From a phage: a stretch of 64,000 nucleotides of DNA. This document shows positions 16,390-39,474 of the stretch, piece by piece. The number at the start of each line of letters is the position of its first letter. Within the stretch, counting starts at the first letter, position 1. The position numbers and the translations under genes were made by a program. Where the stretch lies: sequence record PZ452578.1. One strand, 5' to 3'. Under the pieces are notes generated by a model. That model saw only the letters and a program-made list of their open reading frames with translations. It did not search any database and was not told where the DNA came from.

Positions 16390-16860
16390 TTAATCATGTT
16401 TCCACACCCCATCGGTATTTGACCAAAGTCGCTGATTATCTGATCCTCGCCACAGCTTTTTGGTCGGAAGATTTTTCTCATACTTCCCATCAATAATAAC
16501 ATCAACATATTTAAGCATTTCTAGTTGTTTAATATCTTCAAACTTGTACCCTGTCCACAACCAAATGCTTTTATTTGGATAAAGATTTTTTACTGTTTGA
16601 ACAATGCAATGAACAACATCTCGGTTATCAGGATAAAGAGGGTCACCTCCGGTTATAGTTAATCCTTCTATATAATCATTATTCAAACATTCAATTAATT
16701 GTTCTAGTGTTTCACCGGTGAATGGAATACCATTTCTAGCATTCCATGTTGATTTATTATAACACCCTTCGCATTTATGCAAACAACCTGTAACGAAAAG
16801 AACGACCCTGCAACCAGGGCCATTCACAAAATCGCAAGGATAAAATCTATCATAATTCAT
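16390..16860 (-). CDS. nrdG: anaerobic ribonucleotide reductase activase NrdG (radical SAM)
   Basis: 156 aa; CxxxCxxC-type cluster region (GCLHKCEGCYN) and NrdG-like N-terminus. Confidence 0.9.
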   Translation of the reverse strand: MNYDRFYPCDFVNGPGCRVVLFVTGCLHKCEGCYNKSTWNARNGIPFTGETLEQLIECLNNDYIEGLTITGGDPLYPDNRDVVHCIVQTVKNLYPNKSIWLWTGYKFEDIKQLEMLKYVDVIIDGKYEKNLPTKKLWRGSDNQRLWSNTDGVWKHD

Positions 16861-18674
16861 TGGTGTTTAACCCTATGCATGATTTCTTTATTTTTGCCAA
16901 GATTAAATCCGCGCTCGTTCGGATTTCCCAAATAGCCGCATGTTCTTCTTATGGTGTTCATCTTTTTAGGATCAGTTTCTCCACAAATAGAACAAACAAA
17001 TCCGTTTTCAGTAGGAGTCATTTCATGGGTACTTCCGCATGTAAAACATTTATCTACTGGCATATTAACACCAAAATAATCTAAATGTTGTGCAGCATAA
17101 TCCCATACGGCCTCAAGGCCTTTTAAGTTATTTTTCATATCAGGAAGTTCAACATAAGAAATGTGACCACCTGTCGCAATGAAATGATATGGCGCTTCAC
17201 GAGAAATCTTTTCAAACGGAGTAATATTTTCTTCTACTGAAACATGGAAACTGTTAGTGTACCAACCTTTATCGGTAACATCTTTTACGCTTCCATATTT
17301 TTCTGTATCGAGTTTACAGAAGCGATAACAAAGGTTTTCAGCAGGAGTCGAATATAAACTAAAAGCAAATCCAGTTCTTTCAGTCCACTGTTTAAGATGA
17401 GCATTCATTTTAGTTAAAATTTCCTGTCCAATATCACGACCGACAAGAATATTCAATTCATGAATACCAATGTATCCTAGGGACACTGAACTTCTACCGT
17501 TTTTAAATAACTCAATTATGTCGTCATCAGGTTTAAGACGAACCCCGAATGCACCTTCTTGGTAAAGAATAGGAGCAACAGTAGCTTTAACTCCTTTTAA
17601 GGAACTAATTCTACACATCAAAGCTTCAAAACACAAATCCATACGTTCATTGAATAATTCAACAAATTTCTGTTCGTTAAATTGTGTTCCAATATAAGAA
17701 TCTAATGCAATGCGAGGAAGATTCAGTGTTACAACACCAAGATTATTACGTCCATCAAGAATTTCATTACCAGTCGAATCTTTCCATACGCTCAAGAAAC
17801 TACGGCATCCCATCGGAGAAACAGGAATAGATGAACCAGTGATAGCTTTATTGTTCTTAGCTGAAATAATATCAGGATACATCCTTTTGCTTGCACACTC
17901 TAAAGCAAGCTGCTTAATATCATAGTTCGGATCGTCTTTATAAAGATTAACACCTTCTTCAACAAACATAACAAGCTTAGGGAAAATAGGAGTTATCCCA
18001 TCACGACCAAGACCTTTAATACGATTTTTCAGAATTGCTTTCTGAATCATTCGTTCAGTCCAGTCAGTTCCCGTACCAAATGTAATTGTTACAAAAGGCG
18101 TTTGTCCGTTTGAACTAAAGAGAGTATTTACTTCATATTCATAAGCTTGAAATGCATCGTATACGTCTTTTTCTGTTTTAGATTGAGCATAATTCAACGC
18201 ATCGGCGATTTGCCATTTTTCTGCATCCTCAATATGTTTTGCATAGGTGCGTTTAACATAAGGAGAAAGTACTTTATCTACATTCGCAAAAGTCGTTCCG
18301 CCGTATTGGTGAGAAGCAACTTGCGCAGTAATTTGTGCCATAATTGCAGTAGCAACTCCAATTGATTTAGGAGTTTCAATCTGTGCATTACCTAGCTTAA
18401 ATCCGTTTTCAAGCATTCCTTTTAAATCTACTAAACAACAATTAGTAAATGGAAGAGCAGGGGAATAATCAATATCATGGAAATGAATAATTCCGCTTTC
18501 ATGCGCTTTCATAATAAAAGACGGGACCATATTTTTGGCAATGTGTTTAGACACAATACCAGCCATAAGGTCCCGTTGAGTTGGAAAAACACGAGAATCT
18601 TTATTAGCATTCTCGTTTAAAAGGTCTTTATTAGTTTTATGAATCAATCCTTCAATTTCTTTTTCAATTGTCAT
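16857..18674 (-). CDS. nrdD: anaerobic ribonucleoside-triphosphate reductase NrdD
   Basis: 605 aa, uninterrupted; C-terminal zinc ribbon (CFTCG...CSICG) and glycyl-radical motif RTCGYLG. Confidence 0.95.
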   Translation of the reverse strand: MTIEKEIEGLIHKTNKDLLNENANKDSRVFPTQRDLMAGIVSKHIAKNMVPSFIMKAHESGIIHFHDIDYSPALPFTNCCLVDLKGMLENGFKLGNAQIETPKSIGVATAIMAQITAQVASHQYGGTTFANVDKVLSPYVKRTYAKHIEDAEKWQIADALNYAQSKTEKDVYDAFQAYEYEVNTLFSSNGQTPFVTITFGTGTDWTERMIQKAILKNRIKGLGRDGITPIFPKLVMFVEEGVNLYKDDPNYDIKQLALECASKRMYPDIISAKNNKAITGSSIPVSPMGCRSFLSVWKDSTGNEILDGRNNLGVVTLNLPRIALDSYIGTQFNEQKFVELFNERMDLCFEALMCRISSLKGVKATVAPILYQEGAFGVRLKPDDDIIELFKNGRSSVSLGYIGIHELNILVGRDIGQEILTKMNAHLKQWTERTGFAFSLYSTPAENLCYRFCKLDTEKYGSVKDVTDKGWYTNSFHVSVEENITPFEKISREAPYHFIATGGHISYVELPDMKNNLKGLEAVWDYAAQHLDYFGVNMPVDKCFTCGSTHEMTPTENGFVCSICGETDPKKMNTIRRTCGYLGNPNERGFNLGKNKEIMHRVKHQ

Positions 18675-36442: not shown

Positions 36443-36763
36443 TTATTCTTTAAATCTAATCAATTTATTCATAGACTTTGAAACTTCTGCACGAACCTCA
36501 TGTAGATTTTTGAGCTGCTCAAGACGCTGCGCATAGTAAGCAATTTCATCTTCTTCGAGACAGTCCTGTGAATCTTCTTTAAGATAACGTGCATAGTCCT
36601 GAAAAGCGTTACGAACTACTTCCTGGAAATCATCAAGACTTTGAATTTTCTTAGGAGCAGCAGATACACGACGAGGGGCAGTATAATACTCATAACCAAA
36701 CCCTGCGCTTAATTGAGCCATTAGTATTTTTCCTCTGGTTGGAACACTGCACGACAAGCCCAC
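36443..36763 (-). CDS. hypothetical protein (vs.3 position)
   Basis: 106-aa ORF. Confidence 0.5.
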
Positions 36764-37023
36764 ATACTGGCTTCTTTGAGTTTCGTTTTAGCAATAGTTA
36801 ACTGATCGAGGCTTTCAGCATAATTCTTCGCGAGTTCATCATCTTCACAGCTATCAAATGCTTCCCAAAATTCATCGTATAAAGCATCAAAGATAAGTCC
36901 TAAACGAACTTCAGCGTCTTTAATAGCATTTACTTTACCGATTTTTTCGTCGGTATGTGGCTTATAACCTTTAATATCTTCAATCATATTTGACTTCCTC
37001 ACCAGTGCATAAATCATATTCAA
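36721..37023 (-). CDS. hypothetical helical protein, positional candidate for vs.4 (Acb2-like)
   Basis: About 88-100 aa depending on start; second small ORF upstream of regB in a vs.3-vs.8-like series. Assignment by position and size only. Confidence 0.4.
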
Positions 37024-37201
37024 CTAAACGAATAGGTTCATGAATGCCATATCCTTGAACAGAAATTTCTGTCGTAGGATAAATTCCATCAATATCACCC
37101 ATATTCCAGGCTTCATTAAATTGCTGTTCGCCTGAATTACTAAACCACTCGGCGAAAGCATTTAGCACATCTTTAGAACCTTCAATAATTATCTTTGCCA
37201 T
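36980..37201 (-). CDS. hypothetical protein
   Basis: 73-aa ORF. Confidence 0.45.
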   Translation of the reverse strand: MAKIIIEGSKDVLNAFAEWFSNSGEQQFNEAWNMGDIDGIYPTTEISVQGYGIHEPIRLVEYDLCTGEEVKYD

Positions 37202-37563
37202 TACAAACTCTCAGTAAAGGTACGAGCGATAACGTCGCGCTGCTGTTCCGGAGTCAGAGAGTTAAAGCGAACTGCATAACCAGATACACGGATGGTCAGC
37301 TGCGGATATTTTTCCGGATGCTTAACTGCATCTTCCAGAGTTTCACGACGCAGAACGTTAACGTTCAGGTGTTGACCACCTTCAATTTTAATTGTAGGCT
37401 GTGGCTCAATTTCAATTTCACGGGCATGCAAACCATAGAAAATTTCTGGGTCTACAAAAGAGTCCTCTTTAAAGGTTTTAGAAACGATAATTCGTGCTTG
37501 AATACCATCTTCAAAATAAATAGTGCCTTTGTGTGTGCCTTCAAGAATTTGATATGCTTTCAT
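37201..37563 (-). CDS. GrcA/YfiD-like autonomous glycyl-radical cofactor
   Basis: 120 aa; C-terminus [29 protein letters not shown] is the glycyl-radical signature found in E. coli GrcA and the PFL C-terminus. Confidence 0.8.
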
Positions 37564-37570
37564 ATAAACC

Positions 37571-37897
37571 TCAATTAGAAAATAAATTTATCCAAGATTG
37601 TTCTTTAATTAAAAACGGCTCAGAATCATATGCCATTAAACTTTGGGTGATTAGTCCTTTAAAAGGCCCATCAATAAATTCCATGGTAAAATATGGAATT
37701 TTATTCATTAGCCGTGCATTAGGAGCCGTGCACAAAACTCTGCATCCTTTGAATACGCCTTTTTGTAATTTGTATTGCTTGGGATAAAATTCGCTCAAAA
37801 TGTTATTATTTGCTAAAATTTCAAAATGATTCACCAATTTATTTTTAATAGTTTTTGGCGAAAAATAAAGATATTCGAAAAGCTGAGTGTCTGTCAT
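37571..37897 (-). CDS. hypothetical protein
   Basis: Start set at MTDTQLFEY, overlapping the stop of the upstream ORF. Confidence 0.5.
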
Positions 37898-38436: not shown

Positions 38437-38576
38437 TTCTTCTCTCTAAATTTGGGCCATTCCGTGGCGCATGAATTGTCCATTTCTGTATTTACCCATT
38501 ACCGCGCTTGGGCTCGACCTTATTACAGGTTGGCGGGAATCCCTCACAAAATCATGAGGTCCAGGTTGTTCCCATG

Positions 38577-39050
38577 TTATTTGAATGATTTAACGTACTG
38601 AATAGAACCTTTACTATTCACAAAGGCAATTTTACCATTTTTGTTATACATGGTAGCAGTACGTTGATAGCCATAAGTTTGTTTACCAGATTGATAACCA
38701 ACTAATGCGAAATTATCTTCACCCATTTTATTCTGTTTAGCGCGAATACGTTCATGGCCATGTGCCATAAGAACCTTAGCATCACCAGTTGCAATGGATC
38801 TACGAGTTTTTTCATCTTCAACTGTATTAACAAAGTCGTCAAATGAATCAAATTTAGCATGAGATTTATTATACAGTTTTCCATCTACTGCATAATTATA
38901 TCCTTGTACATCCATCTCAACTTCTGTACCATCATCCAGTACAGCAGTGATTTTCTGTCCTTTTTTAAATTTCAAAAGATCAGTAAAAGATTCAGCAATA
39001 ATTTGAGAATTAATAGCTGCTTCAGTAATAAATTCTTGATAGGTTTTCAT
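38577..39050 (-). CDS. internal-protein-like head cargo protein with capsid targeting sequence
   Basis: 157 aa; N-terminus MKTYQEFITE matches the T4 internal-protein CTS consensus MKTYQEFIAE (prohead protease site L/I-x-E). Confidence 0.7.
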   Translation of the reverse strand: MKTYQEFITEAAINSQIIAESFTDLLKFKKGQKITAVLDDGTEVEMDVQGYNYAVDGKLYNKSHAKFDSFDDFVNTVEDEKTRRSIATGDAKVLMAHGHERIRAKQNKMGEDNFALVGYQSGKQTYGYQRTATMYNKNGKIAFVNSKGSIQYVKSFK

Positions 39051-39066
39051 GTGTTTCCTTTAATTT

Positions 39067-39384
39067 TTATTCTTTAGGGAAGTTTTTAGAATATGCATCA
39101 TAAAGCTTATTTCCAATACGGCGGAAAACTCTAGCCGCAAAACGATTTTCTGGGTTTTTAATCATGATTTGCATCATATAAGTACCCGCGTCAGAAAGAG
39201 CTTCTTCATAGTACCCGTTAATTTCTTTAAGAGTCCTACGTTTACCACCAGGACCATCAACAGTGATTTTCCATTTACCTGTAGAAGTACGACTTGGCGG
39301 CTCAACTTGTTCAATCCAGATATAACCGCCTTCTACACGTTGTCCTGCAGCAGATTCTGCAATAAATTCTTGATATGTTTTCAT
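39067..39384 (-). CDS. internal-protein-like head cargo protein with capsid targeting sequence
   Basis: 105 aa; N-terminus MKTYQEFIAE identical to the CTS consensus; basic body. Confidence 0.7.
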   Translation of the reverse strand: MKTYQEFIAESAAGQRVEGGYIWIEQVEPPSRTSTGKWKITVDGPGGKRRTLKEINGYYEEALSDAGTYMMQIMIKNPENRFAARVFRRIGNKLYDAYSKNFPKE

Positions 39385-39437
39385 GTGTTTCCTTTAAATA
39401 TTTTAATTAGTATAATTTATCTATTTAAGTAACTGTG

Positions 39438-39470
39438 AATATACTATCACAATTCCAAGAGAAAGTAAAC
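39438..39470 (-). promoter_or_regulatory. phage early promoter upstream of the internal-protein genes
   Basis: Minus strand: GTTTAC (-35), spacer, TGaTAGTAT (-10). Confidence 0.5.
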
Positions 39471-39474
39471 AGCT

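Follow-up and report, generated by a model that had tools for sequence, protein, structure and literature searches.

A GrcA-like spare-part protein in a T-even phage and the host-like DNA of its glycyl-radical domain

Why a lytic phage should encode a free-standing glycyl-radical domain, which enzyme such a domain would serve, and where its DNA came from are the questions raised by a small gene in the window analyzed here, i.e., the whole 64,000-nucleotide stretch of phage DNA in sequence record PZ452578.1. The gene is the ortholog of vs.6 in phage T4, and an earlier note, made from the sequence alone, had proposed that its product is a GrcA/YfiD-like spare part that repairs oxygen-damaged glycyl-radical enzymes, either the pyruvate formate-lyase (PFL) of the host or the NrdD of the phage. 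We conclude that the vs.6 product is a spare part of the T4 Y06I type, which would mend oxygen-cleaved host PFL during infection (probability roughly 0.85). This spare-part finding has been known since 2001, is already annotated, and in itself adds nothing new; the modest lead lies in the DNA of the radical domain, which may track the grcA gene of the phage's host.

The vs.6 ortholog and its T-even surroundings

By its nucleotide matches, the window comes from an RB14-like T-even phage: over the 25 kb around vs.6, identity to phage RB14 is 96.8%, and this region is matched by hundreds of T-even genomes. The T4 genes tk.4, vs, vs.1, regB, vs.3, vs.4, vs.5, vs.6, vs.7, vs.8, e, and nudE are present in T4 order at 90-100% identity, with regB and vs.3-vs.5 downstream of vs.6, and vs.7 and vs.8 upstream. 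The ORF given in the earlier note is real (Table 1), starting with ATG and encoding a protein of 120 aa and 13.8 kDa without any cysteine. Its Shine-Dalgarno sequence is also kept in T4, Mosigvirus, and Klebsiella phage 5N in the alignment, and its TAA stop codon shares letters with the ATG of the following gene (TAATG). A scan for promoters and terminators gave counts not above those in shuffled sequence; a TTGACA-16-TAATAT arrangement on the minus strand (37982-37955) is a candidate promoter at most.

Table 1. Features of the vs.6 locus, in window coordinates
Feature	Position	Strand	Basis or remark
vs.6 / Y06I ortholog CDS, phage GrcA-like autonomous glycyl radical cofactor	37201..37563	minus	ORF list, T4 vs.6 match, Pfam, TIGR04365, PDB 6owr
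Shine-Dalgarno GAGG	37569..37572	minus	5 nt 5' of vs.6 ATG; overlaps vs.7 TGA stop
Codons 1-60, phage-lineage N-terminal half	37384..37563	minus	GC 0.34, GC3 0.23; homologous to bacterial GrcA N-terminal region
Glycyl-radical domain as host-derived DNA patch, CDS nt 181-353 (codons 61-118)	37211..37383	minus	172/173 nt identical to E. coli grcA
Glycyl-radical signature, residues 92-104	37252..37290	minus	Translation
Gly95 codon GGT, predicted radical site	37279..37281	minus	Direct sequence reading and phmmer alignment to 6owr and PFL 1h16/1cm5

The product is identical to T4 vs.6 (NP_049730.1) at 118 of 120 residues (98.3%). Ile58 of the window protein is Val in T4, and Arg73 is His in T4; at position 73, the window agrees with E. 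coli GrcA, while T4 does not. The UniProt name Y06I, which we take to denote the vs.6 product, agrees with the mass of about 13.8 kDa and with the finding that homologs occupy one place per phage genome. Such homologs are present in 1,589 phage records, in 1,541 of which an intact ORF covers at least 80% of vs.6; the phages are T4-like phages of Escherichia, Klebsiella, Enterobacter, Citrobacter, Erwinia, and Aeromonas, and also T5-like phages. RefSeq names the T4 protein "autonomous glycyl radical cofactor GrcA," and many deposited phage genomes are annotated likewise. The annotation of the orthologs is inconsistent, with "pyruvate formate-lyase," "2-ketobutyrate formate-lyase," and "hypothetical protein" used elsewhere.

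Several neighboring genes deserve a comment of their own. The vs.4 ortholog, two genes 3' of vs.6 (36721-37023, minus strand), matches Pfam Acb2_Tad1_hairpin (E = 1.4e-19), and vs.4 of T4 is the known anti-CBASS cyclic-nucleotide sponge Acb2. The vs.5 gene is a 73-aa ORF in the window (36980-37201, minus strand) and about 74 aa long in Mosigvirus SF (L001:5382-5558). In the T4 reference, one nucleotide is deleted there (GCTTTCG-CGAG vs. GCTTTCGCCGAG), and the annotated 58-aa product runs on in another frame, its residues 17-58 aligning with a different frame of the window. Further away, no match to T4 denV was found within the whole window, and the place of denV-ipII-ipIII (38437-39474) is taken by two other ORFs, 38577-39050 (157 aa) and 39067-39384 (105 aa). 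Both begin with MKTYQEFI, like the leader of T4 internal proteins, with a weak 33% match to ipII only.

Family membership and predicted target

The sole strong Pfam domain in the vs.6 product is Gly_radical (residues 61-101, E = 3e-18), and the best NCBIfam match is TIGR04365 "spare_glycyl" (152.4 bits, E = 6.7e-45, model positions 25-126 of 126), whose equivalog cut-off of 170 bits is not reached because the N-terminal half (20-60 residues) has diverged. In phmmer searches, residues 22-120 align with residues 28-127 of E. coli GrcA in its NMR structure 6owr (E = 1.2e-41), and residues 61-120 correspond to GrcA residues 68-127 with 60/60 identities. The PFL chains 1h16 and 1cm5 follow (E = 6e-26), residues 59-120 aligning with PFL 698-759 (49/62 identical), so that Gly95, the equivalent of Gly102 in E. 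coli GrcA, falls on the radical site Gly734 of PFL. The radical glycine is thus kept in the alignment. Judged by these scores, the glycyl-radical match is far above chance. As in the GrcA/YfiD family (InterPro IPR011140 / TIGR04365), the domain stands alone at about 14 kDa without a catalytic barrel and has its radical glycine in an RVSGY motif; both its identity and its neighborhood place it in the T4 vs.6 orthologous group (Straboviridae). Most residues of the glycyl-radical signature are invariant, and the others conservatively substituted, among 10 phage homologs and E. coli GrcA. The signature lies in the C-terminal part of the product, but it does not form the literal end, as had been stated, since 16 further residues follow it.

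The N-terminal half is of a different kind. Codons 1-60 match E. coli GrcA at 17/51 residues (about 33%), and none of the 80 bacterial GrcAs compared exceeds 35% amino acid identity as a closer source for this half. At the DNA level, the first 180 nt have 44-46% identity to E. coli grcA and are not alignable. This half has a dN/dS of about 0.13-0.2 against its Mosigvirus and Jiaodavirus orthologs, and is thus under purifying selection. The N-terminus of YfiD is reported to affect or aid radical installation by the PFL-activating enzyme (PFL-AE) (PMC13450708), and a role of the phage-specific half in activation is probable.

A spare-part activity has been described for the T4 ortholog. According to Wagner et al. 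(2001, BBRC 285:456), as cited in PMC8683613 and in PMC13450708, a review of 2026, Y06I reconstitutes oxygen-cleaved PFL once it has been activated by PFL-AE. PFL-AE puts a radical on both Y06I and YfiD, and the activated protein forms a complex with the cleaved PFL, which regains its activity; these two are the only validated spare-part proteins (PMC8683613, PMC13450708). The vs.6 gene was also flagged as a conserved Gly_radical ORF in a comparative genomics study of 2006 (PMC1524935). The host-PFL half of the earlier proposal was thus borne out by biochemistry on T4 Y06I, which is 98% identical to the window protein and differs from it in two residues; for the window protein itself, rescue of PFL is predicted from this similarity.

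The other half of that proposal, with NrdD as a repair target and vs.6 positioned near the anaerobic reductase genes, fared differently. The vs.6 product would in this case replace the oxygen-cleaved C-terminus of the phage NrdD (Gly580) after activation by NrdG, and both enzymes are indeed encoded in the window, on the same strand as vs.6 (nrdG 16390-16860, nrdD 16857-18674). A role in nucleotide metabolism has been speculated on from the common Pfam domain (PMC1524935), and in Aeromonas phage AsFcp_2, the homolog (L009:401-1175) directly precedes nrdC (thioredoxin) and nrdH (glutaredoxin); this distant T4-like phage is the sole case here of a vs.6 homolog adjoining nucleotide-reduction genes. 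In the window, however, 18.5 kb and many genes lie between vs.6 and nrdG/nrdD, a distance at which we dismissed genomic linkage. Although both proteins match Pfam Gly_radical, the similarity between the vs.6 product and the NrdD of the window is not significant (BLASTP E = 4). The NrdD C-terminus (CFTCGS...CSICGE...RRTCGYLG) carries a CxxC...CxxC motif, whereas the cysteine-free vs.6 product has neither the similarity nor the four-cysteine motif of a class III ribonucleotide reductase radical domain. As a spare part acts by imitating the domain that its target has lost, and the vs.6 radical domain with its identities to GrcA and PFL is shaped for PFL rather than NrdD, we consider repair of NrdD highly improbable. 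Spare parts are, further, known and validated for formate-lyases only (PMC13450708).

Instead of repairing PFL, the vs.6 product might modulate it, targeting full-length inactive PFL or TdcE (2-ketobutyrate formate-lyase), or competing with GrcA for PFL-AE or PFL via its N-terminal half, and thereby re-tuning host fermentation. Such a role would be consistent with the purifying selection on a half that is so little like GrcA, with the reported influence of the YfiD N-terminus on PFL-AE (PMC13450708), and with the places similar to the radical-domain DNA in E. coli genomes (median three), which are consistent with grcA, pflB, and tdcE. It is nonetheless unlikely in our view, though on indirect grounds: the activity published for Y06I is reconstitution and not inhibition (PMC8683613), and a radical domain identical to that of GrcA speaks for docking in the same way. 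The gene might also be a non-functional passenger, i.e., host DNA gained by recombination and neutrally carried, as the 173 nt that are essentially E. coli DNA could suggest. We give this next to no credence, considering the intact ORFs in 1,541 phage records, the low dN/dS of the half that is not host-like, the position of the patch, which keeps the reading frame and lies wholly inside an older phage gene, and the in vitro activity of the T4 protein (PMC8683613).

As a spare part for oxygen-cleaved host PFL, the reading that we prefer, the 14-kDa vs.6 protein would be made by the phage while it infects a host that is fermenting or microaerobic, and the host PFL-activating enzyme (PflA, a radical-SAM enzyme) would remove a hydrogen atom at Gly95. 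With its radical in place, the domain would then dock on host PFL whose C-terminal radical domain oxygen has cut at Gly734, bringing back the production of acetyl-CoA and formate and with it fermentative energy for the infection. The benefit to the phage in vivo would be that fermentation is maintained as oxygen fluctuates. T4 shuts off host gene expression, and a plausible reason for carrying a phage copy is that the host grcA would not be inducible after this shut-off. No phenotype of a vs.6 mutant in vivo was found in the searchable literature. If this mechanism holds, vs.6 would illustrate how lytic coliphages invest in host fermentation under fluctuating oxygen, as in the gut.

Host-like DNA in the radical domain

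At the junction between codons 60 and 61, the composition of vs.6 changes from that of the 5' half (GC 0.34, GC3 0.23) to a GC of about 0.45-0.49 and a GC3 of 0.40. The segment that begins there (referred to here as the patch) is nearly identical to E. coli grcA (Table 1), and this identity ends within the last two codons before the stop, with no similarity further downstream. In a blastn search of the patch against 5,426 E. coli genomes, grcA was the best match in all of them. The dS of the window patch to E. coli is 0.047, whereas unconverted phage homologs have values of 0.8 to >1.2. Of the 80 bacterial grcA genes compared, that of Escherichia is closest to the window patch (98.3%), followed by Citrobacter amalonaticus (92.1%), and the distances of the patch mirror E. 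coli's own distances to these genes; the donor is Escherichia itself. The phage collection is bimodal with respect to the E. coli patch: 643 records have at least 95% identity, 2 have 90-95%, and the others are at or below 90%. We conclude that vs.6 is, on sequence grounds, a mosaic of a phage-lineage 5' half and a radical domain derived from E. coli grcA.

Other origins of this identity were considered and rejected. Amino acid constraint or codon bias does not account for it: in Citrobacter phage Margaery, these 58 residues are the same but the dS to E. coli is 1.24, and the GC3 of the patch (0.40) is not that of the 5' half (0.23). Transfer in the opposite direction, from phage to host, does not fit either, as the E. 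coli segment stands to other enterobacterial grcA genes just as vertical inheritance would predict (92.7% to C. amalonaticus, median 85%) and the composition of the patch is host-like. Similarly, pflB or tdcE as donor is at odds with the 60/60 amino acid identities to GrcA vs. 49/62 to PflB, and with grcA as the best match in each of the 5,426 genomes.

Recurrence across phage genera and known analogues

The E. coli-like patch is not confined to close relatives of the window. It is 98.8% identical to E. coli grcA in Mosigvirus SF and 97.7% in ECO111 5-P (close to Mosigvirus, taxonomically unassigned), two phages whose flanks are 73-79% identical to the window and whose 5' halves are separated from it by a dS of 0.49-0.67. 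Where the window, T4, SF, and ECO111 5-P depart from the E. coli allele, the differences are few and all private. Near-identical patches amid diverged flanks and 5' halves, together with private differences, imply that the patch was introduced or re-imposed after these genera had split.

A host-matched patch of another type is present in Klebsiella phage vB_KpnM_5N (Jiaodavirus), in which GC3 is 0.63 in the patch vs. 0.20 in the 5' half. Its patch (L003:581-753) is identical to K. pneumoniae grcA (L093:401-573) at 164/173 positions and to E. coli grcA at 149/173, whereas the window patch matches the K. pneumoniae gene at 151/173 positions and the E. coli gene at 172/173; the two host genes agree with each other at 152/173 in this segment. 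The phage also has host-specific residues (ETLLDAVEH vs. ETLEDAVKH; LL..E). The K. pneumoniae patch is found at 90-97% in 138 phage records, those listed being Klebsiella phages, and the alignments start at the same junction. The K. pneumoniae grcA was taken from CP125156.1, a 5.37-Mb record in PLSDB labeled "plasmid unnamed2" that is evidently a chromosome. Several other multi-megabase "plasmid" records in PLSDB, E. coli included, are evidently chromosomes as well, which is a caveat on data quality. In Enterobacter phage KMB17 (Karamvirus) and Erwinia phage Virsaitis27 (Winklervirus) (L005, L010), the 3' halves are AT-rich and 71-79% identical to either host. In the comparison with four other Tevenvirinae genera, the N-terminal halves of vs.6 share 65-87% identity among these genera, and gene order is conserved.

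The simplest reading of this distribution would begin with a T4-like ancestor that took up grcA long ago, followed by vertical descent and then by repeated host-to-phage gene conversion, confined to the segment in which homology is high enough. We lean toward the view that the chromosomal grcA of the current host repeatedly overwrites the radical half of vs.6 via homologous gene conversion within about 175 nt, and that the spare part thereby tracks the PFL system of its host, with an Escherichia patch (98-100%) in Tequatrovirus and Mosigvirus, a K. pneumoniae-type patch (94-97%) in Jiaodavirus, and an AT-rich, ancestral form in Karamvirus and Winklervirus. No description of the vs.6/grcA mosaic was found in the searchable literature, a scope without the full texts of Wagner et al. 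(2001) and the T4 genome review. If true and undescribed, this would be a clear case of ongoing gene conversion from host to lytic phage in T-even phages. A single 175-nt segment would then serve as a natural marker of a phage's recent host history, and its match to the host across genera would be evidence that T-even genomes have repeatedly recombined with the chromosome of the infected cell.

Among the known systems, T4 Y06I is the counterpart of this very gene in a sister phage, sharing with the window the slot between vs.5 and vs.7, the strand, and the mosaic structure with an E. coli grcA patch. E. coli GrcA/YfiD has in common with the vs.6 product the size, the stand-alone domain, the identical last 60 residues, the equivalent radical glycine, and a homologous N-terminal region with an A-R-x-I-V-x-K...F-x-E-D stretch, but the phage N-terminal half, about 33% identical, is 7 residues shorter, and vs.6 is presumably under phage control rather than the FNR/ArcA-type control of the host gene. 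The C-terminal domain of PflB (about 698-759) has the same fold element and motif, with Gly95 on Gly734; it is part of an 85-kDa enzyme, whereas the vs.6 product is free-standing and lacks the catalytic cysteines.

For the patch, the closest known analogue is the cyanophage psbA gene with its host-like patches. Intragenic recombination between host and phage copies of psbA was reportedly described by Zeidner et al. in 2005 and Sullivan et al. in 2006. There, too, a host metabolic gene carried by the phage contains internal host-like patches with sharp breaks in GC and identity. Gene, host, and phage group are different, and the vs.6 patch, unlike those of psbA, corresponds to one functional domain and is matched to the host genus in two phage lineages.
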